Below, piece after piece: positions 1,834-38,530 of a stretch of 64,000 bases of DNA; positions within the stretch are counted from its first letter, which is position 1; each line of letters opens with the position of its first letter. The DNA lies in assembly GCA_021163765.1 (NCBI GenBank), contig JAGGTK010000099.1, positions 80,089 through 144,088 on the forward strand, given 5' to 3'. The DNA is from a bacterium (GTDB lineage: Bacteria; 4484-113). A program made the translations under genes and the position numbers. The notes beneath the pieces are model-generated. The model saw only the letters and a program-made list of their open reading frames with translations, did not search any database and was not told the DNA's origin.

Positions 1834-4800
1834 ATGCTCGTGAAACGACTATGGGTCTGGGTGCTCTTCCTCTCGCTGTTTGCGGTCTTTTCTGGCTGCG
1901 GCGGATCTTCGCATAAGAATCCAGGTGTCCTGCCATCTCTTTCCGGCCGGGACGCCGGCTCTGGCGAAGTGTCACAGCTCGATGATTACGGCTTCGGCAC
2001 CGAGGGATTCGTCCCCGGCGTGGACTACTACCCCGACCGCTTCGTTGTCGGCTTTAAGAACGGCGCAAAGGGCACCAGCGGTTCCCCGTCGCCGGTTGAT
2101 TACAACCCCAACTCAAAGCTGTATCGCAACACTGGCGTGGCATCACTGGCACGCGAGATCCGCGACCGTTACGCCGTGGCGCTCGACAAGGAAGCCTACG
2201 TTCGCGGGGTTAACTTCGCAAGCTACCAGACAGAGGGCGGCTCGTGCGCCAAAAGCGTAATGCAGCAAATTCAGTCGGACTACGCCGACGCAATCGAATA
2301 CATCGAATACGACGGGATTCGCTATCTGCAGTACGTTCCCAACGATCCCGATTATCCAGATAACCTCTGGGGCATGGTGAAGATTAACGCCGAGGACGCG
2401 TGGGACACCGAGAAAGGCGACAGCAACATAATGGTCTGTGTAATCGACACGGGCGTGCGCTACTCCGGCGATACCGTGGACGACGCGCCCGACCACGAGG
2501 ATCTAGCTGACAATTACCTGCACCCGCCTGACCACTGGCCGGACGAGCAATTCGATCTCTACGACGAGGATAATGTCCCTGAAGACGAATACGGCCACGG
2601 CTCACACTGCTCTGGCACCATCGGCGCGGTGGGCGACAACAGCAAGGGCGTCGTCGGCGTCAACCACGACATCACGATGGTGATGATCCGCGTGTTCGGG
2701 CCCAGCGGCGGCTGCCCCGATAGCTGGGTGGCGACAGCGATTGAGCTGGCTACGGAGATAGAATCCGATGTCATCAGCATGAGCCTTGCCGGTAGCTTCC
2801 CCAATCTGGCGACCAAGGAAGCCTGCGAGGACGCCTACGATGCCGGGATATTCATCGCTTCCGCAGCGGCAAACTCCTATACTGACGAGCCTTACTACCC
2901 CGGCTACTACGAAGTCTGCTGCTGCGTGGGTGCGACGACCTCATCGGACAACAGGGCCAGCTTCAGCAACTACGGGCAGTGGGTGGATATCGCCGCGCCA
3001 GGTGTTAGCATCAAGTCCTGCGGATATCTTTCAACCTCCTATTACATGTCTTGGAGCGGCACCAGCATGGCCACGCCCCACGTTGCAGGCGCAGCAGCCC
3101 TGCTGCTCAGCTATGACAGCACGTTGACCGTTGACGAGTTGCGTTCGGCCCTGGAAAGCACCGGCGCTGACCTGAGCGACTCCCAGTGGGGGAATCCGGA
3201 TATCAAGCGCCTTGATGTGGACGCGGCGCTGACATTTGTGGTGGACGATGAATTCGGCACGCCGCCCACCGTCAGTATTGACAGCCCCGACGGCACTTCT
3301 TCCGTCAGCGGCACCGTGACGATTGAAGCCAGCGCGTCGGACAGTGACGGCTCGATTCTGAAGGTGTTCTTCTACGCCGACGATGTCCAGATGGGAACTG
3401 ATGATACAGACCCATACACCTACGAATGGGACACAACTAAATACCTGAACAAGGCCTATACGCTGAAAGCCGTAGCGCTCGATAACCAGCATATGACCTC
3501 CGAGGATACGGTCTCGGTTACGGTGTCCAATACGGTCGAGACTCCGAATTACTTCATTGACTTTGAAAGCGGCTCCACGGATTGGTGGCACACCGACGAG
3601 AACGGCTCCGGCTACTGGCAGCTCGTGGACGATGACGGCGCCAGCGGAACGCACAGCTTCCACCAGGGCGGGGCGGGAGGCGGCAACTACGGTAATCGCG
3701 AGTTCGACCGCTTGTATTCGCCAGTGTTCGACCTATCAGCTCTCTCTGCCGTGCGCCTGAAGTTCAAGCACCACCGGGCTTTCGCCAGCGGGGATTATGG
3801 CTACGTTATCGTTCACGATGGGAGTTACGACTTCAATATCCTGGCGTGGTACGGCCCCGGCACGCAGTCGTCCTGGGCTGATGTAACGAAGAGCCTTAAC
3901 AGCTACATCGGCAAGTCAGTCCAGATAGTATTCCTTTTTGAATCCAATACTAGTGGTCAGGCGGCCGGCTGGTGGATTGACGACTTCGCAATTGAGAAGA
4001 AGACGCCCCCTTGCAGCATAGACATCACGTCACCAGGGGCCGACGCGGAGGTCAGCGGCACGGTGGATTTCGCCGCAGACGTGAGCGACGACATTGACGT
4101 CACGCTGGTGGAGATGTCCATCGACGATTCGCTGAAGGCGAGCTTCACCGACGACGGCCCCTACGAATACTCGTGGGTCACGACCGACTACCACGGCGGC
4201 CTGCACGACCTGAAGGTCTACGCGGAGGACGAATGGCCAACCTCCAGCGAGGAGAGCATCAGCGCCACGGTAAAGAACCACACCATCACCGGGGCTGACG
4301 TAACGTCGGGCATAGCCGGCACTGCCGTGACCATAGACGGCACCTACTTCATCGCTGACAGCGGCGATGCCTACAACGCTTCGACGGACAAAGTCTACTT
4401 CAGCGGAGCTTCCGGCTGGTGCGAAGCGGCGGTGAGTAGCTGGCAGAAGGAAGCAATCCAGGTGACCGTGCCCGGTGGCGCGGTGACCGGCCCGCTGATG
4501 GTGGATATAAACGGCGCGGAAGTTACATCCAGCTTCGATTTCACGATGCTTCCGCACCTTGACGCGCTCAATCCCGCCATCCAGATTGTTGGCGGTGACA
4601 TCACTATTGAGGGCACGGGCTTCGGAGCTTCGGCGAACGGGGACAGCGTCGTGGATATCGGCGGTCTCGAGGCGACCATTGTGTCCTGGGACACCAATGC
4701 GATTGAAGTTACTATCCCTTCAGGGGTCATCCAGTCAGACCTGACGGTGACCGTCACCTCGGGGACGAGCAACGCTTTAGTCTTTACACCGAAGCCGAAC

Positions 4801-5085
4801 ATCACGGGTCTTGACCCGGACCGAACCTGGCCGGGCAACGAGATAACGATTAACGGAACCAGTTTAGGAGATGAACAGGGCGATAGCGCGGTTACTTTCG
4901 CCGGTCCTGTCGAAGCCGCGCCGGAAGACATCGTTAGCTGGAGCGATACCGAGATTGTAGTTGTTCTGCCGGAGAGCTCCCTGCGGGGCGATGTTGTTGT
5001 AACGGTAAACGACGTTGACTCCGATGGCGAGTTCCTGATAGTAATACTGCCCCCGCCCAGCCTGGGTGGAGTGCAACAGTACTAA
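1834..5085 (+). CDS. Subtilisin-family (S8) serine protease lipoprotein with Ig-like, MAM/choice-of-anchor-like and 4x IPT/TIG domains
   Basis: ATG preceded by GAGGGCGGAA. Lipobox signal MLVKRLWVWVLFLSLFAVFSGC. I9-like propeptide (YYPDRFVVGF). Catalytic motifs VCVIDTGV (Asp codon 2445-2447), HGSHCSGT (His 2596-2598), SGTSMATPHVAG (Ser 3064-3066). These are followed by Ig-like domains, a beta-sandwich ending WWIDDFAIEK, four IPT/TIG repeats and the tail LPPPSLGGVQQY. Confidence 0.9.
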   Translation: MLVKRLWVWVLFLSLFAVFSGCGGSSHKNPGVLPSLSGRDAGSGEVSQLDDYGFGTEGFVPGVDYYPDRFVVGFKNGAKGTSGSPSPVDYNPNSKLYRNTGVASLAREIRDRYAVALDKEAYVRGVNFASYQTEGGSCAKSVMQQIQSDYADAIEYIEYDGIRYLQYVPNDPDYPDNLWGMVKINAEDAWDTEKGDSNIMVCVIDTGVRYSGDTVDDAPDHEDLADNYLHPPDHWPDEQFDLYDEDNVPEDEYGHGSHCSGTIGAVGDNSKGVVGVNHDITMVMIRVFGPSGGCPDSWVATAIELATEIESDVISMSLAGSFPNLATKEACEDAYDAGIFIASAAANSYTDEPYYPGYYEVCCCVGATTSSDNRASFSNYGQWVDIAAPGVSIKSCGYLSTSYYMSWSGTSMATPHVAGAAALLLSYDSTLTVDELRSALESTGADLSDSQWGNPDIKRLDVDAALTFVVDDEFGTPPTVSIDSPDGTSSVSGTVTIEASASDSDGSILKVFFYADDVQMGTDDTDPYTYEWDTTKYLNKAYTLKAVALDNQHMTSEDTVSVTVSNTVETPNYFIDFESGSTDWWHTDENGSGYWQLVDDDGASGTHSFHQGGAGGGNYGNREFDRLYSPVFDLSALSAVRLKFKHHRAFASGDYGYVIVHDGSYDFNILAWYGPGTQSSWADVTKSLNSYIGKSVQIVFLFESNTSGQAAGWWIDDFAIEKKTPPCSIDITSPGADAEVSGTVDFAADVSDDIDVTLVEMSIDDSLKASFTDDGPYEYSWVTTDYHGGLHDLKVYAEDEWPTSSEESISATVKNHTITGADVTSGIAGTAVTIDGTYFIADSGDAYNASTDKVYFSGASGWCEAAVSSWQKEAIQVTVPGGAVTGPLMVDINGAEVTSSFDFTMLPHLDALNPAIQIVGGDITIEGTGFGASANGDSVVDIGGLEATIVSWDTNAIEVTIPSGVIQSDLTVTVTSGTSNALVFTPKPNITGLDPDRTWPGNEITINGTSLGDEQGDSAVTFAGPVEAAPEDIVSWSDTEIVVVLPESSLRGDVVVTVNDVDSDGEFLIVILPPPSLGGVQQY
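4006..5082 (+). repeat. Copy A of a ~1.08 kb coding module (Ig-like + 4x IPT/TIG + C-terminal tail) shared with the C1 protease gene
   Basis: Colinear with 6770-7840 at protein level (roughly three quarters of residues identical by eye). There are runs of exact nucleotide identity, e.g. 36 nt at 4510-4545 = 7268-7303 (aacggcgcggaagttacatccagcttcgatttcacg). Confidence 0.85.
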
Positions 5086-5185
5086 GTCACAATGCCCGAC
5101 GGCGATTTACCGCCGGAGCATTGGGAGCTCTGAGTATAATAATGCTGCGGACAACGCTCGTATTCGGAAGGATAGGCGGCGCATC

Positions 5186-5740
5186 ATGACTAATTCACGC
5201 AGGACTGTTCTAAACCGACCCGGAGGAACTTTCACACTGCAAGCCCTGAAGGTGCTGTTGGTGGTTGGCGCTTTGGGACTTGTTAGCTGCGGCGGGCATA
5301 GCAAGCATGCGCCCACTCTCGTTAATACCGTAGAACTCGCAGAAACTGCCAATTCAGAGCCGATGGAAGTGGCGGCCCAGGCCCAGGAGCAAGAGTATAC
5401 GCACTTGGTGAGAGTGACAATGAGGCCGCAGGAACCGCTGGAATCCGGGCCGGGCCTGTCTTTGCCGTCTCCCCTGGAGGCTTTTGGCCTCTTGCCCGAT
5501 GTTAAGGGGGGATCGACCAGCGCAGAGCGCCTGATGCGGATGGGGTCGTCCTATGAGGAAATCCTGCCACACAACAGGATTGCGCGAGATGGCGACTATC
5601 TTGTTTTCAATGCTCGACCTGGCAACGACAGGGCTGCTCTCTCCAGCGAGCTGTCGTTCGCCGCTTACCGCTTCTCTCTTGCGGGATATGATGGAAGCCA
5701 GACGATAGGGTTTGACTGGGGGCTTCCGCCAAGCGGATGA
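5186..5740 (+). CDS. Lipoprotein signal peptide + pro-region fragment, in frame with the downstream C1 peptidase and separated from it by one TGA
   Basis: ATG 5186 gives MTNSRRTVLNRPGGTFTLQALKVLLVVGALGLVSCGG (lipobox). AAGGATAGG lies upstream. The frame is the same as 5744-7843 and the junction reads CCA AGC GGA TGA GGC ATG. The ORF-track start at 5066 would overlap the upstream gene. Confidence 0.55.
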   Translation: MTNSRRTVLNRPGGTFTLQALKVLLVVGALGLVSCGGHSKHAPTLVNTVELAETANSEPMEVAAQAQEQEYTHLVRVTMRPQEPLESGPGLSLPSPLEAFGLLPDVKGGSTSAERLMRMGSSYEEILPHNRIARDGDYLVFNARPGNDRAALSSELSFAAYRFSLAGYDGSQTIGFDWGLPPSG

Positions 5741-5743
5741 GGC

Positions 5744-7843
5744 ATGGACAGGCCTGAGTTCCAGGTCGGCTTTGGAAATGTCTCAAGTGACACCTGGGAA
5801 TGGTACGAGGGGCCGCGCGACGACGTTCTGACGCTTGAGTCCTATGAGCCTTACACTGCGGCTAACGGCGATGTGCTGGCAGTGGTTGTGCTGGATGACA
5901 CAATCGAGTTCACGCTCAAGCAACTGGCTGTGGGTGAATACGAAATCCGCGCGCTGGGTGATGAGTGGTCTGAGAGTGACATTTCCGAACTTGATAAGGA
6001 ACGCTGGGCATCTTCGGCGGAAGGGGATGCACAGCGCCAGGCTTCGGATTTGCCATCGTCAGTTGACCTTACCAGCGGTTGCTCGCCGGTGAGGAACCAG
6101 GGGAGTATTGGCTCCTGCACCGCCTTCGCCGTAGGCCCCGGCGCGTATGATTACGAGCTGGGGAGCATCTACGGTTATTACGGCTGGGACTTCGACAATG
6201 ACTTCAACCTGTCCAGCCCGAAGTGGCTATACCGCAAAACCGGCACCGGCTGTGGAGGAAGCTCAGGCCGAACTACCTGGAAAGTGGTGGATTTCCTGAA
6301 GACGGACGGCACGTCTTCCGAAGAGAACTGCCCTTACACGAACGTGTGCGGAAGCGATTGCACAAGCGACGACGCATACGATGATGCAGAGCTTCTACAG
6401 ATCGACAGCTGGTCTTTCGTATTCCGGTGCTGGACTGAGGACGAGATAACTCCCATCAAAGCAGTGCTTGCCAATGAAGAGCGTGTCCTCGTGATGCGCA
6501 CGGACGTTGACAGCTCTATTTTTGATTACAAGGCTGGCGATGTTTGGAATTTCACTGGGCCCAGTATCGGCGGGCACGCAATGTGCATCGTTGGCTATGA
6601 CGATTCTAAAGAAGCGTTCAAAGTCCGCAATAGCTGGGGTGCTGACTGGGGCGATAACGGTTATCTGTGGATTGGCTACGAAACTTTTCTGGACTATGAC
6701 GGTTCATACATCTATTGCTGCAAGATGGTGGATTCCTACAGCGAAGATGTTCGCCAACGGTTCCTGAAACCGCCGTCTATTACCATCACAGCGCCTTCAG
6801 ACGGCGCCACGGTTTCGGGAACGGCAGACTTCACCGCGGATGTAACCGATAACACCGGAGTCGATCTTGTGGAAATGTACATTGACGGCGATATGGTGGC
6901 CGACTTCAGCGCTGAGCCCTACGAGTATTCCTGGGACACCACTGACTACCATGGAGGGGCGCATACGCTAAAAGTCTACGCAGAGGATGACACATCCATA
7001 TGGTATGAGAAACAGATAACTGTTTATGTTGAAAACCACACTGTCACGAGCGTCAGCCCCGGTTCCGGAATCACCGGAACGACGGTAACCATTAGCGGAA
7101 CATCCTTCTTGGCCGGAAGCGGTGACACTTACGATGATTCGACGGATAAAGTCTATTTCAGCGGGGATTCCGGCTGGAGCGTGGCGACGGTGACAGACTG
7201 GCAGGAAGAAGAGATAGAGGCGGTCGTCCCCGGCGGTGCGGTGACCGGCCCGCTGAAGGTGGATATCAACGGCGCGGAAGTTACATCCAGCTTCGATTTC
7301 ACGGTTCTGCCCCATATAGACGCGCTTAATCCTCCAGCTCAGGAGATAGGGGGCAATATAACCGTCGAGGGGACAGGCTTTGGGGTGTCCGCCAACGAGG
7401 ATAGCTCTGTAGACATTGGCGGCATTGAGCCGACTATCGTGTCCTGGGCAAACACTGAAGTCGAGATAACTATCCCGTCCGGTGTTACCAAATCGGACCT
7501 GACGGTTACTGTTACGTCTGGCACGAGCAACGCCGTTGTCTTTAAGCCCAAACCGAACATCACCGGGCTTGATCCGAGCCGCACGTGGCCGGGTAAAGAA
7601 ATTACGATAACGGGAATCAGCTTCGGTAACGAAGTGGGTGACAGCACGGTTACTTTCGCGGGGCCGGTTCAGGCTGGCCCGGAGGACATCGTGGGCTGGA
7701 GCGACTCGGAAATAGTAGTTGTTCTGCCGGAAGGCGCAAAGCGGGGCGACGTTGTGGTGACGGTAGACGGCGTCGATTCGGAAGGCGAGTTCCTGATAGT
7801 CATCCTGTCGCCGCCGGTTCTGGGCGGCGTGCAGCAGTATTGA
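5744..7843 (+). CDS. Papain-family (C1) cysteine protease fused to Ig-like + 4x IPT/TIG module; lacks its own signal peptide
   Basis: NQGSIGSCTAFAV (Gln/Cys nucleophile), GGHAMCIVGYDD (His), VRNSWGADWGDNGYLWIGY (Asn-Ser-Trp). C-terminal module ~75 percent identical to that of the S8 protease at 1834-5085. Tail LSPPVLGGVQQY. Confidence 0.85.
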   Translation: MDRPEFQVGFGNVSSDTWEWYEGPRDDVLTLESYEPYTAANGDVLAVVVLDDTIEFTLKQLAVGEYEIRALGDEWSESDISELDKERWASSAEGDAQRQASDLPSSVDLTSGCSPVRNQGSIGSCTAFAVGPGAYDYELGSIYGYYGWDFDNDFNLSSPKWLYRKTGTGCGGSSGRTTWKVVDFLKTDGTSSEENCPYTNVCGSDCTSDDAYDDAELLQIDSWSFVFRCWTEDEITPIKAVLANEERVLVMRTDVDSSIFDYKAGDVWNFTGPSIGGHAMCIVGYDDSKEAFKVRNSWGADWGDNGYLWIGYETFLDYDGSYIYCCKMVDSYSEDVRQRFLKPPSITITAPSDGATVSGTADFTADVTDNTGVDLVEMYIDGDMVADFSAEPYEYSWDTTDYHGGAHTLKVYAEDDTSIWYEKQITVYVENHTVTSVSPGSGITGTTVTISGTSFLAGSGDTYDDSTDKVYFSGDSGWSVATVTDWQEEEIEAVVPGGAVTGPLKVDINGAEVTSSFDFTVLPHIDALNPPAQEIGGNITVEGTGFGVSANEDSSVDIGGIEPTIVSWANTEVEITIPSGVTKSDLTVTVTSGTSNAVVFKPKPNITGLDPSRTWPGKEITITGISFGNEVGDSTVTFAGPVQAGPEDIVGWSDSEIVVVLPEGAKRGDVVVTVDGVDSEGEFLIVILSPPVLGGVQQY
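6770..7840 (+). repeat. Copy B of the Ig-like + 4x IPT/TIG + tail coding module
   Basis: See copy A (4006-5082). Same domain order and high similarity, strongest over roughly 7130-7840. Confidence 0.85.
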
Positions 7844-7856
7844 GCCTTCGAGCCGG

Positions 7857-8426
7857 CTAGTTGCGCCCCTTCAGCGTGAAAAGGGGCATCTTAAACGCGA
7901 GGTCGTCCGCTAATTGAAGGCCAATCACCGCCGAGACCTTCATGTTGAATAGCAGGTGCGCATTGTGTGTCTCGATGAGCATTTTGCGCGTGCCGTGTTC
8001 ACCGAACTTGTAATAGTTGAGCACCTCACGGGAGCTGGTCCCCAGGGTGACGCCTGTCTTTGTGCGGATATTCGGGAACTCGGTGGCGAACTTGCTCGCG
8101 AGGAAGTCTATGTTTGTATCGCTGTTGATTGAGATTATTATCACGTCCACCCGGTTGTCCTGGTTGACATCTCCGATGATGAAGCTGTAGTTGTTGTAGA
8201 CATCCCTGAACTCGAAATACCGGCTGTCGCGGGAAACGTTGTTGTCCGCTATGCGCTGGCCGAGCGATTCGGCTATTCTCTCTTCGACCTGCGAGTAGGG
8301 GCTCCCCAAAGGCGTGCCCAGCCCGAAACTTTCGTTTTTCAGGAGCTCCCTGTAAGGGTCGGGTTTCTGGCAGCCGAGCGCGGCGCACATTAATACCAGA
8401 ACCACTGCAATCGGGGCTGCTCTCAT
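7857..8426 (-). CDS. Hypothetical lipoprotein
   Basis: Signal MRAAPIAVVLVLMCAALGCQ with lipobox. SD GGAGGGG lies upstream of the ATG. No recognisable catalytic motif. Confidence 0.6.
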   Translation of the reverse strand: MRAAPIAVVLVLMCAALGCQKPDPYRELLKNESFGLGTPLGSPYSQVEERIAESLGQRIADNNVSRDSRYFEFRDVYNNYSFIIGDVNQDNRVDVIIISINSDTNIDFLASKFATEFPNIRTKTGVTLGTSSREVLNYYKFGEHGTRKMLIETHNAHLLFNMKVSAVIGLQLADDLAFKMPLFTLKGRN

Positions 8427-8470
8427 CGGTATCCCCTCCAGGCTGAGGGATTCATCGGACTCCTCAGGAG

Positions 8471-8479
8471 ATTATACCA
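8471..8479 (-). promoter_or_regulatory. Extended -10 box TGGTATAAT for the lipoprotein gene
   Basis: rc of attatacca. About 45 nt upstream of ATG 8426, with an SD in between. Confidence 0.45.
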
Positions 8480-8500
8480 TCGTGCTCGCGGGCAGCAGCC

Positions 8501-8509
8501 TGCTAAAAT
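8501..8509 (+). promoter_or_regulatory. Extended -10 box TGCTAAAAT for the SpoIID-like gene (predicts a leaderless mRNA)
   Basis: The last T is at 8509 and the ATG at 8517, with 7 nt between. The expected transcription start therefore falls at or 1 nt before the ATG. There is no SD. Confidence 0.45.
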
Positions 8510-8516
8510 AGAATGT

Positions 8517-9902
8517 ATGCGACTCCTCGTTGTGATGGCGCTTTGCCTTACCCTCGTCAGCGTTCCGAGGGCTTACGCGGTGGAGGTGGGGCCTGCAAGC
8601 GGTGGCGGCATGGAGACTGAAAGCGAGGGCAAGGATGAGGAGCGTGTTTCCGACAGGGATCTGCACTGTGAGGGCAAACCGCTGTTTCTCCGGGTGTTGC
8701 TCAGTGCGCATCTCCCGCGCCTGGCAATCGGGTGCGATACTGCGATTACTGTCAGCAAGCCGGGCAGCAGCACGTTCGGCAAATTGATACCGCCGGTGAC
8801 GGTTGCCGTAGGAGCAGCACGGATAACAGTCAGTGATGTGTCAGGCAGCTTCACCGGTGCGGAGCTTAAGCTGGCTCCGCAACAGGGGGGCCTGCTGCGC
8901 TTCCGTAATGTCAGCTATCGCGGGACAATGCATCTGCGCGTCAGCTCGCAAGGCGGGGTGCTGCTGCTCAACGTGGTGGAGCTTGAGGACTACCTGCGCG
9001 GAGTGGTTCCGGCTGAAGTGCCGGCCCTGTGGCCGCCTGAAGCGGTAAAGGCGCAGGCGGTAGCGGCGCGCACATATGCGGTACAGCGCGCGAGCGCCAG
9101 AAAGAACTCTCCCTACGATGTAACGAATGATGTCAGCGACCAGGTCTACCTTGGCGTGGCCAGGGAGCATCCGGCGTCCGATGCGGCAATCGCAGCGACC
9201 GCTGGAATGGTAATTACGCACAACGGCGAACCCATCATCGCGTATTTCCACGCATGTTCGGGCGGTCACACACGGGACGGCCCGCAGCCCTATCTCGTTG
9301 GCGTTGAGAGCCCGGAAAACTCCCCCTACGACGCCTGGAAGCTGGAATACACCTTAGGGGAGCTTGGCGGGATTCTGGACAAGGGTGGCTTTGCGGTGGG
9401 CAGCCTGAGGGATGTTCAAACGGTACCCGCGCCGGAAGTGAGAGACGGATTCCGGGTTGTGTTCGCGGGAAGCCGGGCACGGGTGGAATTAACGCCCTCG
9501 CAGACGCGCAGCCTGCTGGGAGTTGATACGCTGCGCAGTCCGCGCTTCCGGGTTGAGCTTGTGGGCGGGGAAGCTGAAGGGCTGTCCGAACTTCAGCACT
9601 GGATGCGCACGAAGCTGGTGTCGGCGGAAGAAGAGACCGAAGTAAAGGTGCGCGGATGCGTCGTGACCAACGGGCGGAAGGCGCGGCGGCTGACCGGCAC
9701 CCATTATGTGCTTGTGCGCGTGCAACAGGTGGAGAAAGTGCGTTTCGCCGGCGGTGGCTACGGGCATGGTCTGGGTATGTCCCAGTACGGTGCGAAGTAT
9801 ATGGCGGAGCATGGAGCCGACTGGCGCGAGATAATACACCACTATTACTCAGACGTAGAAATCTCCGACCTGAGTGAGATAGGCCGTATGCCCGGATTTT
9901 AG
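8517..9902 (+). CDS. SpoIID/LytB domain protein (peptidoglycan lytic transglycosylase family)
   Basis: Signal MRLLVVMALCLTLVSVPRAYA. Motifs EAVKAQAVAARTYAV, DQVY, AYFHACSGGHT, GHGLGMSQYGAKYMAE. Confidence 0.8.
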   Translation: MRLLVVMALCLTLVSVPRAYAVEVGPASGGGMETESEGKDEERVSDRDLHCEGKPLFLRVLLSAHLPRLAIGCDTAITVSKPGSSTFGKLIPPVTVAVGAARITVSDVSGSFTGAELKLAPQQGGLLRFRNVSYRGTMHLRVSSQGGVLLLNVVELEDYLRGVVPAEVPALWPPEAVKAQAVAARTYAVQRASARKNSPYDVTNDVSDQVYLGVAREHPASDAAIAATAGMVITHNGEPIIAYFHACSGGHTRDGPQPYLVGVESPENSPYDAWKLEYTLGELGGILDKGGFAVGSLRDVQTVPAPEVRDGFRVVFAGSRARVELTPSQTRSLLGVDTLRSPRFRVELVGGEAEGLSELQHWMRTKLVSAEEETEVKVRGCVVTNGRKARRLTGTHYVLVRVQQVEKVRFAGGGYGHGLGMSQYGAKYMAEHGADWREIIHHYYSDVEISDLSEIGRMPGF

Positions 9903-10675
9903 GTGTTTGGCTGGCGCCAACCCCGGACAAGCTTCAGCGGATCCGCAATGCTCAGCGGGGTCTCACTCAAGAAGGCTTGTGCGTACCTGCATTTCACAAG
10001 GCGGCCGAACTGCCGGGCTATGCCCTCAAAGAATGCTCTCATCTGGGGATTCTTCTCCTGGTTGCCAAATTGCGAGCTGTGGGCCATTACGGAATCGATC
10101 CATCGGTCGTAATAATCGTCTACCGGCACGATGAAAGTGGGTGTCACAGTGGGCGGTAGGAAGTAATAAAACAGCGCCTGCGCCTGATGCGGGGGATGCC
10201 CCAGGCTCAGTTTCTCCAGGTGTGCGTAGTTGAAAGCATGGCTGGCGAGCAAGCCTGCTTTGATGTGGTCGTTGTGTCCGCGCCCGCGCCCAGGCGCTTG
10301 CCCGTAATACGGCGCGAAAACGATATCGGGGCGCAGCCTGCAGATAACGCGTGCCAGAGCAAGGCGGTATTCCGCCGTGTCGTCCAGCCCGCAGTCGGGG
10401 AGTCCCAGCGTGCCCCTGAAATCCAGCTTGAGGACTGCCGCAGCGCGCTTGCACTCCTCTCTGCGCTCGCCCAGTGTGCCGCCGCTGCTCATTTCGCCTT
10501 CGGTCAGGTCCACGATAGCGGTGGTGGCGCCTGCATCCTTCATCTTGGCCAGAACGCCGCCCGTCCCTATCTCCGCGTCGTCAGGATGTGGCGAGAAGAC
10601 CAGTACATTCGCCGTGAAATCATCGGGGAGCGGCTGATGGGGATACGTCTGGCGAAGAACGCCCGGTTGGGTCAT
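9899..10675 (-). CDS. PIG-L/LmbE family N-acetylglucosaminyl deacetylase (BshB1-like)
   Basis: VLVFSPHPDDAEIGTGG zinc-binding motif and HNDHIKAG. SD GGAGG lies upstream. The 3' end overlaps the convergent SpoIID-like gene by 4 nt. Confidence 0.75.
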   Translation of the reverse strand: MTQPGVLRQTYPHQPLPDDFTANVLVFSPHPDDAEIGTGGVLAKMKDAGATTAIVDLTEGEMSSGGTLGERREECKRAAAVLKLDFRGTLGLPDCGLDDTAEYRLALARVICRLRPDIVFAPYYGQAPGRGRGHNDHIKAGLLASHAFNYAHLEKLSLGHPPHQAQALFYYFLPPTVTPTFIVPVDDYYDRWIDSVMAHSSQFGNQEKNPQMRAFFEGIARQFGRLVKCRYAQAFLSETPLSIADPLKLVRGWRQPNT

Positions 10676-10836
10676 TATTGCCTCCTATTGGGCAGCGGTG
10701 CTGAAGGGCACTTAGCCAGCATTGCACGCACATGCATAATTTCACTGATTATAGCTTATCCTGACGGCACTGCAAGTTGACCCTCCGAATAATGCCCACT
10801 AAAATATCATTTTCAAATCGCAGGGAGGAAAGGCCT

Positions 10837-12129
10837 ATGACGGTGGTCGTAATAGTCGGTTCCCAGTGGGGCGACGAAGGCAAAGGCAAGCTCACACATT
10901 ACCTGGGACCTCAGTTCGACCTTGTGGTGCGATTTCAGGGCGGCAGCAACGCAGGGCACACTGTCAAGACTGGCGGTGAAACGTACCGCTTCAACCTGCT
11001 GCCCTCGGCTATACTCTACTGTGAACACACCTGCCTGATGGCTGACGGCATGGTGGTGAATCTGACGAGGCTGCTCAGCGAGATAAAGTTCCTGCAAGAG
11101 CGTGGCCTGTGGGGCGATAACCTTCGCATCGGCAGCCACGCGCACCTGGTTATGCCTTACCACATCTTCCTGGAAGAGCTGGAGGAGGAGCGGCTCGGCG
11201 GTCGTGCGATCGGCACGACGAAGCAGGGGATTGGCCCTTGCTATGCGGATAAAGCCGCAAGGCTCGGCATACAGGTGGGCGACCTGCTCCACCCGCCAGC
11301 TCTGAAGGAGCGGCTGGCAACGGCTGTAGAGTTCAAGAATGCTTTGATACGTGGCGTCTACAACCGCGACGAGACATACTCGGTGGACAAAATCTACGAT
11401 GAGCTTATGCGCGCCGGAGAAACGATAGGGCCGCTCGTAGTCAGCTCTGTGGAAATGGTGCGCGGATACATCGATGAAGGACGGGCCGTATTGTGTGAAG
11501 GGGCGCAGGGCGCGCTGCTGGATATTGACTACGGTACATATCCCTTCGTGACCAGCTCGCACACTGTTGCCGCCGGAGCCTGTCTGGGCACAGGTATCTC
11601 GGTTAACGATATCACCAAGGTTATAGGTGTCTCCAAAGCCTACACAACCCGTGTCGGCAACGGCGCATTCCCCAGCGAGCTGACCGGCGAGATTGGCGAT
11701 CATCTTCGGGAGAAGGGCCTTGAATACGGTACGACCACCGGGCGACCGCGAAGATGTGGGTGGCTTGACTTGGTGTTGCTGCGCTACACACTGAAGATAC
11801 ACGGGTGCACCGAACTCGCCCTTACGAAGATCGACGTGCTGGACGGCCTGGAGACGGTAAAGGTCGTCAATGCCTACCGCAGGAATGGAGACGTTCTGAC
11901 AGCCACCGAAGTCTCTAACGAGCAGCTATCGCAGTGTGAACCGGTCTATGAGGAGTTCGATGGCTGGGGAGGTCCTGTTTCCGGGCTGCGCGCAGAGGAG
12001 GATCTGCCGCCTCAGCTTGCGCAGTTCGTTGATTTCATTGAACGGGAAGTGGGCGTTCCCGTCAGAATGCTCTCCCTGGGGCCGGACCATGACGAGACTA
12101 TCTGGCGAACCCCCAAGTTAAAGCAGTGA
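10837..12129 (+). CDS. purA: Adenylosuccinate synthetase
   Basis: MTVVVIVGSQWGDEGKGK P-loop at the N-terminus, GGSNAGHTV, TTKQGIGPCY, GTTTGRPRRCGW. ATG 10837 is preceded by GGGAGGAAAGG. The ORF-track start at 10777 is unlikely. Confidence 0.95.
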   Translation: MTVVVIVGSQWGDEGKGKLTHYLGPQFDLVVRFQGGSNAGHTVKTGGETYRFNLLPSAILYCEHTCLMADGMVVNLTRLLSEIKFLQERGLWGDNLRIGSHAHLVMPYHIFLEELEEERLGGRAIGTTKQGIGPCYADKAARLGIQVGDLLHPPALKERLATAVEFKNALIRGVYNRDETYSVDKIYDELMRAGETIGPLVVSSVEMVRGYIDEGRAVLCEGAQGALLDIDYGTYPFVTSSHTVAAGACLGTGISVNDITKVIGVSKAYTTRVGNGAFPSELTGEIGDHLREKGLEYGTTTGRPRRCGWLDLVLLRYTLKIHGCTELALTKIDVLDGLETVKVVNAYRRNGDVLTATEVSNEQLSQCEPVYEEFDGWGGPVSGLRAEEDLPPQLAQFVDFIEREVGVPVRMLSLGPDHDETIWRTPKLKQ

Positions 12130-12205
12130 GCGGATGGCGGGCGGGCAAGTTCCCCGACTTGCGGAACGATGCAAGGCCTGTCCCGAAGGTATAATAATAC
12201 TGATA

Positions 12206-15200
12206 ATGGGTACGCCAAGGGGACAAGTGTCTCGCAGGATTGCTGCGCTTGCCATCGGGGCCTTTTCCGTGTTTATACTGGCGGTCGCGTGCGGCAAAAG
12301 GCAGGGCGCTATTCCACTCACTCCAAAGTTGTCCCCGACGCGCACAGCCGGGGTCGATGCGCAGCGGGATTATTACCCCGACAGGATAATCGTGAAGTTC
12401 GCGCGCGACGCCGCACCTCCAGGCGGCGCTGGCGCGGGAGGTGACAGCCTGCCGCCGTCGGTGCTATATCAGAACACGGCGCCTGCGCTCTTTGCGCGCT
12501 ATCTTGCAGAGCAGTATGCCCTGGACATCGAGCAGGAAGCTTATGTGCGGGAGGTCAACTGGGCATGTTTCTCGGTCGATTCCGCCGAACGGGCCTCGCA
12601 GCTCCTGGGAGAGCTTCCAGCGTCATACCCCAGGGAGATTGAGTACGCAGAGTACGACGGGCGCTTTGAGCTGGACTACGTCCCGAACGACCCATACTAT
12701 CCCGACAACCTGTGGGGGATTGAGAAGATAGGCGCCGAGGATGCGTGGGATACCGCAACGGGCAGCGGAATCAAGATAGCCGTAATCGACACAGGCATCC
12801 GTTACGATGGGAACTCCCCGGCTTCCGTGCCGGACCACGAAGACCTCAACGACAACGTGATGCATCCGCCGGACTACTGGCCGAACGAGAAACTCGACCT
12901 GGTGGATGATGACAACATCCCAAACGACGAAGCGGGCCATGGCACCCACGTTGCGGGAACAGCGGCGGCTGTGGGCGACAACGCGACCGGTGTCGTCGGA
13001 GTTGCGTTTGAAGCGGACATCATTCCCATAAAGATATTCTCCGCCGACGAGCTGCTTTACTACTCTCGCGCCATCCAGGCGGTCACACTGGCGACGGAAC
13101 TGGGCGCGGACGTGGTGAATATGAGCTTCGCCGGCAGCTGGCTCTCCAGAGCGCTCAGCGACGCCCTGACCGATGCCTACGACGAGGGCGTTCTGCTGGT
13201 GGCTGCGGCGGGCAACAAGGTTCTGACTAAACCGTGGTATCCGGCAGGCTACCAGGTGGTAATGGCGGTAGGCTCAACGGAAGGGCAAGACCACCGTTCC
13301 GATTTCAGCAACTACGGGCCTTGGCTGGACATAGCTGCGCCCGGCAGCGGCGTTAAGTCAACCTACTACTTCAACGCTGCTTCTTACTGGACGCTGAGCG
13401 GCACGAGCATGGCTGCCCCTCACGTGGCAGGCACGGGCGCGCTGTTGATGGAAGCGCATCCCGACCTTTCCGTTGGGGAGGTCCGCGCGATACTGGAAGG
13501 CTCGGGCGTGGACCTGCCAGACTCGGAGTGGGACAATACAACCATACGCAGGCTCGATGCCGGGGCTGCAATGAGCTTCAGCCTTGGCAGCGCTCCAACG
13601 GTCACCATCACCTCCCCGGATGACGGCTCTACCGTAGACGGTTTGGTCACCTATAGCGTGAACGTCTCTGACAGCGACGGAAGTGTGGTCAAGGTGTATT
13701 TCTACGTTGGCGATTACCTCCTGGCGATTGATACAACCGCACAGTTCTCGACGACGTGGGATACGGGCAAGTTTCCGAATACGGCCTACGAGTTGCGGGC
13801 TGTGGCATACGACAACCAGGCTCAGCGTACTGCGGCCACGATTACCGTTACGGTCTCCAATACTGCGCTGGCGCCCGATTACTTTACCGATTTCGAGAGC
13901 GGCATAAGCGGATGGTGGAACCTGGATGAGAGCGGGCCTACAAGCTGGCACCTGTCTACTGAGGAAAGCTACAGCCCGACACATTCGTTCAAGATGGGCG
14001 ACACGGGCGACGGCTCCTACGGCAACAGCGAGTACGACCTGCTGTTCTCCCCCGTCTTTGACCTTTCAGGTATCGAGCACGCGCGGGTGAAGTTCTACCA
14101 CCGCCACGTCTTTTCCGGTCCCTGGGATGCCGGCTACGTTACCGTCAACACCGGCGATGGCGAGTACCACGTTCTTGCGTCGTATACCTTCGGTCAGTAC
14201 GAGTGGAAGCTGGAAAACCTTCTGCTCGACGACTATCTTGGGAAGTCCATCCAGGTTGTTTTCCTGATGGAGTCCAACAACACGGTGAACAACGAAGGCT
14301 GGTATATCGACGACTTCCGCCTTGTGAAATCCACTGATCCGCCGACGGTCGCCCTGACCTCGCATCAGGATAACGATATTGTTAGCGGGACGATCACTGT
14401 AACGGCAACCGCCAGTGACGATGTCGGAATCAGCAAGGTAGAGCTTTACGTAAACGGCATACTCTCCGGCGCCGACACTATCCCTCCATACTCGTTTAGC
14501 TACAACACTCTTGAGCTTCACGGCGGCGATAACGTGTTTCGCGTTACTGCATATGACGAATTCCCTCTGACCGCGAGTGACGAGGTGAATCTCATCGTCC
14601 AGAATCACCAGGTAAACTCGTTCTGGCCGTTAAGCGCCACTGCTGGTTCGACGGTGGACATCAGCGGCAACAACTTTATCGCAGACGGCGACGATGCCTA
14701 TAATCCTGCCACGGATAAGGTGCGCTTCACGGGCGAGGAAGATCTGGTCGATGCTGAAGTCGGCAACTGGTACAAGAACAGCATTTCATGCACTGTGCCT
14801 GCGGGCGCTGTAATAGGGCCGGTTTACGTCGTGATCGGCAGCGCCTCTGTTGCTTCGAACGACGATTTCGCAATCAAGCCGCTGGTTGACAGCTTGGAGC
14901 CTGATGCTCAGGTTGTCGGCGAAAATATCCTAATTCACGGGAGTGGTTTCCTGGCCGAGCAGGGCAGCGGCTACGTCACATTCAACGGTCTCCAGGCGTC
15001 GAGTGTGGCCTCCTGGAGCACGCAGGCCATAGAGGTCGTTGTTCCGGGCGGAGTCACGGCAGGGCCGGTGAAGGTCAGCACGGAAGTGGGTGTAAGCAAC
15101 GGGGTCGAGTTTACTCCATTACCGCACATTACCATGCTCTCGTCCAGCCGGGCGTATGCCGGGAAGTTGCTGACGATATTCGGCACCAGCTTCGGCAGCG

Positions 15201-15409
15201 ACTCCAGTGCGGGTTCGGTTTGGTTCCACAATGGCGTTGAGGTGCCGGGCACGGATGCGATGTGGCAGTCCACGCAGATTGGCGTATTCGTGCCGGATGG
15301 CGCGGAAACCGGCGACCTCTACGTGACGGTGAATGGATGCGAGAGCAACAGAGCCTGGCTTACTATTACGCTTCCGCCGCCTCGTCTGGGGGGGCTGTAC
15401 CAGTACTGA
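12206..15409 (+). CDS. Subtilisin-family (S8) serine protease lipoprotein, paralog of 1834-5085 with the same architecture
   Basis: Start chosen at M25 (ATG 12206), which gives the lipoprotein signal MGTPRGQVSRRIAALAIGAFSVFILAVACG. YYPDRIIVKF propeptide. AVIDTGI, HGTHVAGTAAA, SGTSMAAPHVAG. Beta-sandwich ending WYIDDFRLVK, Ig-like domains, four IPT/TIG repeats, tail LPPPRLGGLYQY. Confidence 0.9.
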   Translation: MGTPRGQVSRRIAALAIGAFSVFILAVACGKRQGAIPLTPKLSPTRTAGVDAQRDYYPDRIIVKFARDAAPPGGAGAGGDSLPPSVLYQNTAPALFARYLAEQYALDIEQEAYVREVNWACFSVDSAERASQLLGELPASYPREIEYAEYDGRFELDYVPNDPYYPDNLWGIEKIGAEDAWDTATGSGIKIAVIDTGIRYDGNSPASVPDHEDLNDNVMHPPDYWPNEKLDLVDDDNIPNDEAGHGTHVAGTAAAVGDNATGVVGVAFEADIIPIKIFSADELLYYSRAIQAVTLATELGADVVNMSFAGSWLSRALSDALTDAYDEGVLLVAAAGNKVLTKPWYPAGYQVVMAVGSTEGQDHRSDFSNYGPWLDIAAPGSGVKSTYYFNAASYWTLSGTSMAAPHVAGTGALLMEAHPDLSVGEVRAILEGSGVDLPDSEWDNTTIRRLDAGAAMSFSLGSAPTVTITSPDDGSTVDGLVTYSVNVSDSDGSVVKVYFYVGDYLLAIDTTAQFSTTWDTGKFPNTAYELRAVAYDNQAQRTAATITVTVSNTALAPDYFTDFESGISGWWNLDESGPTSWHLSTEESYSPTHSFKMGDTGDGSYGNSEYDLLFSPVFDLSGIEHARVKFYHRHVFSGPWDAGYVTVNTGDGEYHVLASYTFGQYEWKLENLLLDDYLGKSIQVVFLMESNNTVNNEGWYIDDFRLVKSTDPPTVALTSHQDNDIVSGTITVTATASDDVGISKVELYVNGILSGADTIPPYSFSYNTLELHGGDNVFRVTAYDEFPLTASDEVNLIVQNHQVNSFWPLSATAGSTVDISGNNFIADGDDAYNPATDKVRFTGEEDLVDAEVGNWYKNSISCTVPAGAVIGPVYVVIGSASVASNDDFAIKPLVDSLEPDAQVVGENILIHGSGFLAEQGSGYVTFNGLQASSVASWSTQAIEVVVPGGVTAGPVKVSTEVGVSNGVEFTPLPHITMLSSSRAYAGKLLTIFGTSFGSDSSAGSVWFHNGVEVPGTDAMWQSTQIGVFVPDGAETGDLYVTVNGCESNRAWLTITLPPPRLGGLYQY

Positions 15410-15434
15410 GCCAGGCCACTTATGTGCGGTGATG

Positions 15435-15443
15435 TGCTAGAAT
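15435..15443 (+). promoter_or_regulatory. Extended -10 box TGCTAGAAT
   Basis: Intergenic, 28 nt before ATG 15472. GAGGAGCGGGAG SD lies between. Confidence 0.45.
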
Positions 15444-15471
15444 TTGGGCGCTTTCGAGGAGCGGGAGTTAT

Positions 15472-17190
15472 ATGAGGAATCCAGGACTATATCTTGTGTT
15501 GCTGGCGTTTTTGCTGCTTACGGCCTGTGGGCGAGGGGCTTCCGGCGTTTCTGTGCAGAACGTTAATCCAGGCGCCAACCTTGCCGCGCCGCTCCTGAGC
15601 GGCCTGGAGCTAACCCGTGAGAAGTCGGTGTCCGGCCTGCCAACCGGTGTCATAGTGACCTGGGAGCGCGTGGATGACCCGCTTGCCATCGGCTATTACC
15701 TCTATCGTGACACACAGCACATCGAGACTGCTAATCCTGCGCTGCGGACGAACGGCGGTGACATGATAGATCAGCCGGGCTCCGGCACAACGGTAACCTT
15801 CTACGACGAGTTCTATCCGGTGGTGGGACAGACTTATTACTACCGGCTTTCCGTGGTGGACATCTACGACGAGGAAAGCGATCTCAGCAATGAGCTAGTC
15901 ATAGAGATTTCCGCTCAGGAGGTGACCGGCCTTAACCCGGCGTCTGGCTACTACGGTGACACGGTGACCATCAGCGGCACGGACTTCGGCATCCATAATG
16001 TGGATGACGACTATGTTTTCTTCCCCACGGATTCGTCCGAGAGGGTCGAGGCTGCAATCTTATCCTGGGAGGATACTGAGATTCAGTGCGTCGTCCCGGC
16101 AGGCGCGATTACCGGGCGCGTCCAGGTTGAGATCGCAAGCACCGTCGCGGAAAGCGATGAAGACTTCGTGATACTGAATCCGTTTCTCATCTCGGTGAGC
16201 CCCAAGTACGCTAGCTATAACGAGGAGATACGTATCCTGGGGGACAATCTCACCGACTCGCCCGGACCGGCTGACGGCGTGACTTTCCCGGGCGATGTAT
16301 TCATCTCGTACGGCGCGGGATTCTTCGTTTCCTGGTCGGACACCGAAATAATCATGCGCGTTCCGCCAGCGGTAGGTGCGGACGGCGAGATAACTGCCAG
16401 AGTGGGCGGTGAAGACACGAACGGAGTAGCCTTTTCGGTGCGCCCCGCTATTGAGACGGTGACGCCGCGGAAGCTGGTCCCGGGTTCCCCCACAAAGGTC
16501 TCAGTCGTCGGCCTGAATCTGGGTAACATCCTTGTCAGCGAGCTATATATCGTGGACGCTTCCGACGTAGACCCCGTTCCGTCGGTCAAAGTGGACGATT
16601 CCTACATCGTTTCCTGGGATAACAACGAGGTAGTATTCCGCGTGCCCTTTGAGGAATACGGCGAACTCCCGGCTCTCAGGGTTAAGCGCGGGCCATACTG
16701 GAGCGACAGTTACTCTGTAATCATGCTTGAGCCCCTCCAGATTACCTTTCTGTTTCCCGCCCAGCATTCGACATTGGAGGAGCCTACAACAATCGCGGTC
16801 ACATCGATGATTGACGTCACCCGCGTGGAGTTCTATCTGGGATCAGCGACCTGGCCGCTGTACATTGATGCTGAAGGCCCGGATTATTCACTTGTGATCG
16901 ACCCGCAGGATTACACTAACGGGAGCTACTACTTAAAGGCTAAAGCGTACCGAGGCGCTGAGAGAGCGTACGCATTTCTCCTTTTTGACATACTGTCGCT
17001 CCCCGGGGATACAAACGGCGATGGCGTTGTGGACGATGCCGATGTTGAGAAGCTCAGGTTGCATCTCGGTCTGACGTCCGAAGACGCGCTCTATCACCGC
17101 TACCTTGACCCCAACGACGACGGCCAGATAGACGAGCGGGATGTCAGCTTTATCGGTTACCACTATACAGGCGCCTTTGAGGTACCGTAG
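15472..17190 (+). CDS. Non-catalytic lipoprotein: FN3-like + IPT/TIG repeats + Ig-like domain + C-terminal dockerin-type module
   Basis: Signal MRNPGLYLVLLAFLLLTACG. FN3-like YYLYRD...TYYYRLSVVDIYDEESDLS. IPT/TIG-like repeats (VTGLNPASGYYGDTVTISGTDFG...). Dockerin-like pair GDTNGDGVVDDADVEKL ... DPNDDGQIDERDVSFI. Confidence 0.75.
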   Translation: MRNPGLYLVLLAFLLLTACGRGASGVSVQNVNPGANLAAPLLSGLELTREKSVSGLPTGVIVTWERVDDPLAIGYYLYRDTQHIETANPALRTNGGDMIDQPGSGTTVTFYDEFYPVVGQTYYYRLSVVDIYDEESDLSNELVIEISAQEVTGLNPASGYYGDTVTISGTDFGIHNVDDDYVFFPTDSSERVEAAILSWEDTEIQCVVPAGAITGRVQVEIASTVAESDEDFVILNPFLISVSPKYASYNEEIRILGDNLTDSPGPADGVTFPGDVFISYGAGFFVSWSDTEIIMRVPPAVGADGEITARVGGEDTNGVAFSVRPAIETVTPRKLVPGSPTKVSVVGLNLGNILVSELYIVDASDVDPVPSVKVDDSYIVSWDNNEVVFRVPFEEYGELPALRVKRGPYWSDSYSVIMLEPLQITFLFPAQHSTLEEPTTIAVTSMIDVTRVEFYLGSATWPLYIDAEGPDYSLVIDPQDYTNGSYYLKAKAYRGAERAYAFLLFDILSLPGDTNGDGVVDDADVEKLRLHLGLTSEDALYHRYLDPNDDGQIDERDVSFIGYHYTGAFEVP

Positions 17191-29529: not shown

Positions 29530-29589
29530 AGGTAGCAGATTATAACAGCGCCGGGCCTGCGCGCGCTTTGCGCGCCTGCGGGATTTATG

Positions 29590-29595
29590 TATAAT
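29590..29595 (+). promoter_or_regulatory. -10 box TATAAT upstream of tRNA-Glu
   Basis: atgTATAATccctcgcac followed by the tRNA 5' end at 29605. The predicted transcription start is about 3 nt before the mature 5' end. Confidence 0.4.
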
Positions 29596-29604
29596 CCCTC
29601 GCAC

Positions 29605-29677
29605 GGCCCCATCGTCTAGTGGCCCAGGACGCAGCCCTCTCAAGGCTGAAACACGGGTTCGACTCCCGTTGGGGCTA
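29605..29677 (+). tRNA. tRNA-Glu (anticodon CUC)
   Basis: Manual cloverleaf: acceptor GGCCCCA/TGGGGCT, D arm GTCT-AGTGGCCC-AGGAC (as in E. coli tRNA-Glu), anticodon stem CAGCC/GGCTG with loop CTCTCAA, T arm ACGGG-TTCGACT-CCCGT, discriminator A. CCA is not encoded. Confidence 0.9.
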
Positions 29678-29743
29678 TTGGGGAACTCATTTATTGCGTA
29701 ATGATAGTTCCCTCCACAGGATATGGGAATCCATGCTGCCGGT

Positions 29744-31333: not shown

Positions 31334-31338
31334 TTGGC

Positions 31339-34166: not shown

Positions 34167-34169
34167 GGC

Positions 34170-35018: not shown

Positions 35019-35155
35019 TGAGGTTCTCCTTTCTCCTTTAGTGGTTTGTATCAAACCCATATTTCGTACGCCTCAACGTCTTGGCGCAATCGACCCGGCA
35101 GGACCCGGCTTAACAGTAGTGGCCGAGTCCCACATAGTCCGCAATAAAAGTACGC

Positions 35156-36475: not shown

Positions 36476-36662
36476 GAATCCTCCTGTGACTGTATGTTCA
36501 GTGAGGCATCGGACTGAAATGTATAAATCCTCCATGGCAGCCCGCTCGGTAGTTGGCCGGATAAGTTGACGCGAGTCTCTTAGCGAAGAAGACTTGGCGA
36601 GCCTTCATGCGGTATCTACGTGAACGTCGTCCGATTCTCACGGGTTCAAGCTATCCGGACTC

Positions 36663-36701
36663 AATTAGAGTTGGATTAGCCTTCTGTTAGTTTCCTGTTA
36701 G
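36663..36701 (-). promoter_or_regulatory. Four direct PhoP/PhoB-type boxes with exact 11-bp phasing upstream of porin-pst operon
   Basis: Minus strand reads CTAACA-ggaaa-CTAACA-gaagg-CTAATC-caact-CTAATT. On the plus strand the hexamers end at 36668, 36679, 36690 and 36701. This matches the TT(A/T/C)ACA-type 6-bp repeats with ~5-bp spacers of PhoP, and the CTGTxAx 11-bp Pho box periodicity. Confidence 0.6.
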
Positions 36702-36754
36702 CTTATGCGCCTTCGGGCGCTCCTGATCTGCACTCATCGAAATTCTGTCCAAAC

Positions 36755-38527: not shown

Positions 38528-38530
38528 GGC

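Follow-up and report, generated by a model that had tools for sequence, protein, structure and literature searches.

How is a papain-like protease produced from a gene whose reading frame holds a stop codon, at the same place, in every orthologue that could be recovered? The question is raised by a stretch of 64,000 nucleotides (nt) of bacterial DNA (assembly GCA_021163765.1, contig JAGGTK010000099.1, positions 80,089 to 144,088), hereafter the window, in which four large plus-strand genes encode two subtilases (S8a and S8b), a papain-like C1 protease and a non-catalytic protein with a dockerin module. A first-pass annotation of the window had described these as four large open reading frames (ORFs), which holds for S8a (1834-5085), S8b (12134/12206-15409) and the dockerin protein (15472-17190), all of them intact. 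The C1 gene, however, is not one open frame: what had been read as alternative starts at 5186 or 5744 are two parts of one gene, and the conserved in-frame UGA between them had been overlooked. The UGA is conserved, both of its flanks are coding and the hairpin that follows it is selected, whereas the inserted residue and the reason for its insertion are what we infer. The overall picture, which we consider probable, is one of modular lipoprotein proteases together with a recoded UGA.

A conserved in-frame UGA followed by a selected hairpin

The TGA divides the part of the C1 gene that encodes the signal peptide (5186-5737) from the part that encodes the catalytic domain (5744-7843), in the context ...GFDWGLPPSG*GMDRPEFQVGF.... 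The same codon is TGA in every orthologue recovered, about ten of which are distinct (L003, L004, L007, L008, L009, L010, L016/L020, L017, L018 and L011-L015), including the divergent L010 and L016/L020 with about 50-61% identity, and the identical TGA is present in independent assemblies from JGI, ENA, NCBI and Logan. When the N-terminal fragments were grouped into clusters at 90% identity, all nine clusters ended at the TGA (181-186 amino acids (aa), or partial), and no close contiguous relative, with no stop at the site, was found among these clusters. The ratio of nonsynonymous to synonymous divergence (dN/dS) was 0.17-0.32 before the TGA, 0.13-0.26 for the 49 codons after it and 0.09-0.25 for the remainder of the gene, at synonymous divergences (dS) of 0.25 to >1; both sides of the TGA are under purifying selection.

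TGA is the terminal stop of 17 of the 48 window ORFs, indicating that the genetic code is standard. Genome-wide reassignment of TGA was considered and rejected on this count, and no other split genes were found. At the protein level, the TGA falls within an N-terminal beta-sandwich domain (N-domain) that runs unbroken across the site in ~80 distant homologues, representatives that share both this domain and the C1 head. The clade of the window carries at this point a specific insertion of four residues, G-TGA-G-x, within a variable loop that joins two strands. An AlphaFold2 (AF2) model, calculated with an alignment for the contiguous homologue P0095 (pLDDT 89, pTM 0.85), places the beta-sandwich strands at residues 99-236 and the TGA-equivalent site in the loop at 161-171; a Foldseek search with the whole of this model matched the papain domain only and returned no match for the N-domain. 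Termination at the UGA would leave half a domain on the anchor and a protease without a signal peptide, and therefore the functional product must span the UGA. A full-length C1 product that bears a signal peptide would thus arise only when the UGA at 5738-5740 is decoded. Every pipeline reports a 'hypothetical' 184-aa lipoprotein and, separately, a protease without a signal peptide, so that members of this family are systematically mis-annotated.

A 17-nt hairpin begins 10 nt past the UGA, spanning nt 14-30 with G21-U22 in its loop. It is found in every orthologue, at -8.7 to -14.8 kcal/mol, with a stem of 6-9 bp that is longest in L003 and L008 (9 bp) and is also lengthened in L016 (8 bp), a loop of AGUUC, GUU or AGUU, and a spacing of 16-17 nt. 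The criteria published for bacterial selenocysteine insertion sequences (bSECIS) are a 4-16-bp stem, a 3-9-nt loop with G and then G/U first, a distance of 16-37 nt from the UGA and a minimum free energy (MFE) of -7.5 or below (PMC13188914), and the hairpin agrees with all four. Comparable hairpins follow 0.8-2.6% of the codons in the window. When the sequence was recoded synonymously with the peptide held fixed, the observed stability was reached in 5.5%, 0.4%, 1.2% and 1.9% of trials in the four lineages examined; since synonymous recodings seldom reach its stability, the hairpin is selected beyond coding need. A larger MFE fold over nt 5738-5800 was tried and discarded, as its z-score of -1.4 was not significant and the fold is broken in L003.

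Synonymous divergence along the C1 gene was also compared among six orthologues. It was lowest at 5786-5830 (codons +16 to +30; 0.13) and at about 6990-7020 (0.09-0.11), the mean of the gene being 0.36. The former stretch lies 48-90 nt past the UGA and encodes WEWYEGPRDDV, with every third position invariant; a further RNA element is one possible explanation, mere codon bias another.

Candidate mechanisms for decoding the UGA

Where an in-frame UGA is conserved, the cause is usually selenocysteine (Sec). We consider SECIS-directed insertion of Sec by SelB to be the most likely mechanism in this gene and favour it over leaky readthrough, with a confidence that comes close to even without exceeding it. 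The UGA in the G-UGA-G-x loop would then be read as Sec by way of SelB and the 17-nt hairpin 10 nt downstream. This preference is based on a conserved UGA in frame and a G-U hairpin in the right place, together the classic signature of Sec, on the finding that none of about ten lineages has exchanged the UGA for a sense codon despite dS >1, on the anoxic sediment of the habitat and on the precedent of predicted exported Sec proteases. The minimal SECIS of Escherichia coli fdhF is a 17-nt stem-loop at nt 15-31 with G23/U24 (PMC8659212). The C1 gene resembles fdhF in its conserved in-frame UGA, in the 17-nt length of the hairpin and in the G-U of a 3-5-nt apical loop, here at nt 14-30 with G21/U22, but the window hairpin has no bulged U. 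Sec-containing secreted serine proteases have been predicted in GOS data (PMC2398784), and C1 would resemble them as an exported protease with a predicted Sec. In both fdhF and the GOS selenoproteins, the Sec position is occupied by Cys in homologues and mostly belongs to a redox or disulfide motif, whereas the codon in C1 belongs to a loop insertion that has no Cys counterpart.

It is possible, if still tentative, that the C1 protease is the first member of a new family of selenoproteins, with Sec in a lineage-specific Gly-Sec-Gly loop of a non-catalytic N-domain and without a Cys counterpart; such a family would imply a non-canonical role of Sec in an exported protease. As a speculation, Sec might act as a reversible selenenyl-sulfide latch on the catalytic Cys, or the UGA might place protease output under selenium-dependent control. 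If Sec is indeed inserted, C1 would be a selenoprotein that current searches for Cys/Sec pairs are unable to find, a hydrolase with Sec in a non-catalytic loop, and the view of how Sec is used would have to be widened.

Several observations weigh against Sec and against the wider picture in which it stands. Neither Cys nor any conserved residue is aligned to the UGA in the ~80 homologues, the loop being variable and tolerant, and nearly all known selenoproteins possess Cys homologues (PMC13188914). The genes selA, selB and selD and a tRNA-Sec are absent within the 64-kb window, and an Rfam search around the site returned neither a SECIS family nor any other RNA. Covariation is thin: RNAalifold gave a single compensatory pair, U-A to C-G in L016, and L010 keeps the hairpin only through a one-base register shift. 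Synonymous-site conservation over codons +1 to +15, taken as a block, is average and not depressed. Finally, surface location, lipidation, propeptide cleavage and a proteolytic role are all ascribed to these proteins from what is known of their families.

Part of this evidence would suit a programmed leaky stop, the foremost competitor of Sec although an unlikely one, in which a near-cognate or suppressor tRNA inserts a standard amino acid, the hairpin stimulates readthrough and only a few ribosomes make a potentially self-damaging protease. Because the loop is variable, insertion-tolerant, flanked by glycines and without Cys homologues, any residue at the site would probably be accepted; in addition, the hairpin is selected yet displays little covariation specific to a SECIS, and the window has no Sec genes. 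However, the geometry of the hairpin and its G-U loop fit the SelB-binding consensus, and the persistence of UGA at such synonymous divergences, with no sense codon in its place, also speaks against simple leakiness. Programmed readthrough of a conserved UGA with the aid of a stimulatory hairpin has, to our knowledge, scarcely been described in bacteria, which counts further against it; were it true of C1, the gene would be a rare case of conserved programmed stop-codon readthrough in bacteria. We therefore retain Sec as the preferred reading of the UGA.

A very improbable alternative is that the gene yields two products, a 184-aa lipoprotein that ends at the UGA and a separately initiated cytoplasmic C1 protease of ~650-700 aa. 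Gene callers split the gene in this way in every assembly, and the window has an ATG two codons past the stop, but this ATG is not conserved in relatives: codon +2 is ATG, ATT, GTT, GCG, GAG, TGG or GTG, indicating that no restart is conserved among the orthologues. Moreover, the called starts lie downstream of the 49 post-UGA codons under purifying selection, the stop would cut the beta-sandwich domain in its middle, and the C-terminal part has no signal peptide despite carrying the Big_7 and TIG domains common to its exported paralogues. No sign of a pseudogene is commoner than a single in-frame stop, but a C1 pseudogene, or a TGA that is an assembly or sequencing error, is effectively refuted and receives next to no weight from us, since dN/dS is low (0.09-0.32) throughout at dS of up to >1 and the same stop recurs in the independent JGI, ENA, NCBI and Logan assemblies and in about ten diverged orthologues.

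Lipoprotein proteases and their C-terminal module

Each of the four proteins begins with a lipobox signal peptide, as had been noticed in the first-pass annotation. The motifs were identified by inspection of the translations (n-region, h-region and [LVI][ASTVI][GAS]-C near residues 15-35) and read VFSGC|G in S8a (C22), LVSC|GG in C1 (C35), AVAC|GK in S8b and LTAC|GR in the dockerin protein (C19); they are retained in the L007 and L008 orthologues. These sequences support the view that all four are lipoprotein precursors with extracytoplasmic domain types. Searching each ORF with hidden Markov models, a check that the annotation had itself proposed, confirmed Peptidase_S8 (PF00082; E 1.3e-47 in S8a and 1.9e-54 in S8b), Peptidase_C1 (PF00112; E 4.5e-17), Big_7, TIG and Dockerin_1 in Pfam. 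The catalytic motifs had rightly been called intact: the Asp-His-Ser triad (DTG, HGSH and GTSMATPH) aligns in order with thermitase, and Gln-Cys-His-Asn (NQGSIGSC, GGHAM and VRNSWG) with ficin. S8a, S8b and C1 would most likely serve extracytoplasmic protein degradation. The coordinates of all features are given in Table 1.

Table 1. Features of the protease genes and their neighbours, in window coordinates
Feature	Positions	Strand	Basis
S8a lipoprotein precursor, 1083 aa: thermitase-like subtilase, Big_7, MAM-like, Big_7, 3 TIG, PPPxLGGxxQY tail	1834..5085	+	ORF, Pfam, thermitase alignment
S8a predicted signal peptide, lipobox ..LFAVFSG-C22	1834..1899	+	translation; kept in L007, L008
S8a catalytic domain, from YVPNDP	2332..3190	+	phmmer alignment to 1thm; PF00082 residues 197-447
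MAM-like beta-sandwich between the two Big_7 of S8a	3559..3999	+	sub-threshold Pfam MAM
S8a shared C-terminal module (Big_7, 3 TIG, tail ILPPPSLGGVQQY)	3994..5082	+	alignment; blastp; DNA comparison
C1 protease gene, 885-codon frame through the TGA: lipobox LGLVS-C35, linker, beta-sandwich N-domain, papain-like domain, Big_7, 3 TIG, tail	5186..7843	+	Pfam, dN/dS, homologue continuity
C1 N-terminal beta-sandwich domain, approximate limits, TGA in loop	5540..5970	+	mapped from AF2 model of homologue P0095
Conserved in-frame TGA, candidate Sec or readthrough codon, in GGA-TGA-GGC-NNN insertion	5738..5740	+	same codon in orthologues
17-nt hairpin GGCCUG[AGUUC]CAGGUC, SECIS-like	5751..5767	+	folding, RNAalifold, bSECIS criteria
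Papain-like (C1A) catalytic domain, Q/C/H/N present	6050..6676	+	PF00112; ficin alignment; homologue model vs xylellain 3ois
C1 shared C-terminal module, tail ILSPPVLGGVQQY	6755..7840	+	alignment
Small conserved lipoprotein, 189 aa, AALG-C19	7857..8426	-	convergent with C1 gene; syntenic in all relatives
S8b, S8a paralogue, 45% identity, same architecture	12206..15409	+	alternative starts 12134, 12227
S8b shared module, tail TLPPPRLGGLYQY	14327..15406	+	40% identity to S8a
Non-catalytic lipoprotein: lipobox LLTA-C19, unassigned beta-rich domain, 3 TIG, Big_7, type I dockerin	15472..17190	+	Pfam; orthologues in L005, L007, L008
Type I dockerin module, Ca-loop motifs DTNGDGVVDDAD, DPNDDGQIDERD	17002..17151	+	PF00404 27.5 bits vs cut-off 22.9

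The catalytic domain of S8a aligns end to end with the prepro-enzymes of the thermitase/subtilisin type (MEROPS S8A; E 5e-47), including D/H/S and the mature N-terminus, which in thermitase corresponds to S8a residue 167 (YVPNDP). About 145 residues precede this point (23-166, a linker and the presumed propeptide), and no Pfam match to an I9-type propeptide was found in residues 53-189 at E up to 10. The MAM-like sandwich that the annotation had seen in both S8 enzymes covers the whole model (PF00629, positions 2-154 of 158) in both paralogues, but scores below the Pfam cut-off of 26.4 bits (S8a 19.2 bits, E 1e-3; S8b 21.6 bits); it has no sequence match in the PDB. As lipobox-bearing S8 proteases, S8a and S8b resemble dentilisin PrtP of Treponema denticola, but they reach only 122 and 124 bits against the NF033595 cut-off of 300, and no PrcA/PrcB partners are encoded nearby. 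C1 resembles xylellain (PDB 3ois) in its papain fold and Q/C/H/N residues, and the papain domain of the homologue model matches that structure with a TMt of 0.77. Cwp84 of C. difficile likewise joins a C1A head to non-catalytic modules associated with the cell envelope. C1 differs from bacterial C1A proteases in that an N-terminal beta-sandwich takes the place of the cathepsin-type helical prodomain and in its lipobox and Big_7/TIG domains, and no described C1 protease is known to share its dependence on the decoding of a conserved in-frame UGA.

The C-terminal module of the three proteases (363 aa) consists of one Big_7, three TIG and a 12-aa tail, with three TIG stretches in each protein by Pfam; as these fill the 363 aa, there is no room for a fourth TIG. 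The first-pass annotation, which had placed an Ig-like domain followed by four IPT/TIG repeats at each C-terminus, was thus correct for the order of domains in the three proteases but not for the number of repeats, nor for the dockerin protein, in which the order is reversed (TIGs, Big_7, dockerin). Its claim of one shared presentation module can similarly be upheld for the three proteases, with 68.6% identity between S8a and C1 (blastp) and 36-40% between S8b and these two, but not for the dockerin protein, which is homologous over the TIGs only, at ~30% identity. In their DNA, the S8a and C1 modules are 74% identical over 767 nt, with a longest exact match of 36 nt, and across genomes the modules cluster by gene. 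Recent gene conversion between S8a and C1 was ruled out by these two values and by the gene-wise, not genome-wise, grouping; the absence of long identical tracts and the grouping by gene imply that the duplication is old and that conversion is not ongoing. Ordinary duplication and shuffling of domains would account for the module and its PPPxLGGxxQY tail.

The tail, [IVT]L[PS]PPx[LI]xGxxQ[YL]-COOH, follows the last TIG at the extreme C-terminus of all three proteases (5047-5082, 7805-7840 and 15371-15406) and of their orthologues. We know of no recognised sorting motif that it resembles, although no motif search was made. It may serve sorting, retention or partner binding.

The complete module with its tail is confined to this clade, where it is found on C1 as well as S8 heads. 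S8 proteins with Big_7 are common elsewhere, and C-terminal Ig-like extensions are common among environmental S8 enzymes, but the succession of Big_7, MAM-like domain, Big_7, three TIG and PPPxLGGxxQY tail is limited to this clade. Distant homologues with the same N-domain and C1 head bear PKD, PPC, PEGA, CarboxypepD_reg or beta-propeller tails instead. Judged from these architectures, the mixing of heads and tails is ordinary domain shuffling, and the earlier suggestion that interchangeable heads mark a special system is not borne out. Modular S8 and C1 lipoproteins with Ig-like tails are a product of routine domain shuffling in environmental bacteria, and the protease set adds little to what is known of them; the truly unusual feature is the conserved hairpin-associated UGA in a papain-like lipoprotein gene. 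The most divergent C1 orthologue, L010 (262-2292 of a contig from Logan SRR27456516), is without Big_7 and has four TIG, one of them duplicated; the make-up of the tail module varies inside the clade in this way while the UGA and the hairpin are retained.

The annotation had gone on to propose a dedicated, lipid-anchored cell-surface system in which catalytic heads and the dockerin protein are mounted on a common Ig/TIG stalk, and this we regard as doubtful. The four lipoboxes, the homology of the module in three proteases, the conserved synteny described below and the confinement of the full module to this clade, on both C1 and S8 heads, are in its favour. However, the order along the protein, taken from the alignment of S8a with thermitase, is lipid anchor, ~145-aa linker and presumed pro-region, catalytic head, and Ig/MAM/TIG array; lying distal to the lipid anchor, the array cannot be a stalk beneath the heads. 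Subtilases and papain-like enzymes are made as zymogens, and removal of the presumed propeptide between anchor and head would part the mature enzyme from the lipid. The proposal is also at odds with the different domain order and low identity of the dockerin protein, with the lack of a cohesin in the window, with the variety of tails borne by the same C1 head elsewhere and with the separation of the genes into two pairs. Given the distal position of the array, a role in binding or retention is more plausible for the C-terminal module than one as a stalk or spacer.

Gene neighbourhood and host

The four genes are arranged as two pairs, S8a with C1 and S8b with the dockerin protein, which lie 4.3 kb apart with a small lipoprotein (minus strand), SpoIID/LytB, a PIG-L deacetylase (minus strand) and purA between them. 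The order S8a, C1, small lipoprotein, SpoIID, (PIG-L), purA, S8b, dockerin protein and cobalamin adenosyltransferase is kept in L003, L004, L007, L008 and L009. L005 (CAZXPM010000027, 5700-5734) has the same order minus C1, S8a being directly followed by the small lipoprotein. Synteny, which the annotation had offered as a check of the set, is accordingly retained in at least six relatives, one of them without C1. The annotation's notion of one dedicated system fares less well: housekeeping genes split the pairs, no sorting or secretion genes adjoin the four genes in the window neighbourhood, and promoter and terminator scans yielded chance-level results only. Neither L004 nor L005 gave a match to the PIG-L deacetylase between SpoIID and purA.

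The small lipoprotein encoded convergently with C1 (lipobox MRAAPIAVVLVLMCAALG-C) is present also in L005, which lacks C1, and its 189 aa matched no Pfam family. It could be a partner or an inhibitor of the proteases.

In the dockerin protein, the type I dockerin has two D-x-N/D-x-D-G motifs, and no cohesin was found among the ~45 window ORFs scanned. The protein resembles cellulosome-type dockerin proteins in its C-terminal type I dockerin, which scores above the Pfam threshold and contains two repeats of the Ca-binding loop. It differs from them in what carries the module, a non-catalytic lipoprotein that also has TIG and Big_7 domains, and in that the window encodes no glycoside hydrolase and no cohesin scaffoldin. 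Dockerin-like modules are widespread outside cellulosomes, where their partner is mostly unknown.

The same sequence was found on a JGI contig (3300016457, 252 kb) and on an ENA scaffold (221 kb), both metagenomic, and these contigs indicate saline sediments or mats and anoxic sediment as the habitat. Among named organisms, the best purA relatives belong to 'Ca. Riflebacteria RBG_13_59_9' (75%) and to 'Planctomycetales bacterium 4484_113' (65%); this is an uncultivated lineage, and its placement, taken from the purA neighbours alone, is uncertain. The window encodes an LpxL-like lipid A acyltransferase and a porin, indicating that the organism is a diderm, and the remainder of the window is devoted to ordinary housekeeping and envelope functions.

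Some further features of the window were recorded. A tRNA-Glu(CUC) at 29605-29677 (plus strand) lies inside the 5' end of a 508-aa ORF at 28255-29781 (minus strand) that has no Pfam match; probably the true start of this ORF lies downstream of the tRNA; alternatively, part of the ORF is spurious. On the minus strand at 39909-43349, an FG-GAP repeat protein adjoins a 640-aa radical SAM protein, the two lying just downstream of a PhoR/PhoB-like two-component pair and a Pst-type phosphate transporter cluster (30434-39214). The region 50772-56618, with a DUF6754 protein, three ORFs without a family (52143-54417) and a protein of the penicillin-amidase family, looks like a conserved operon.

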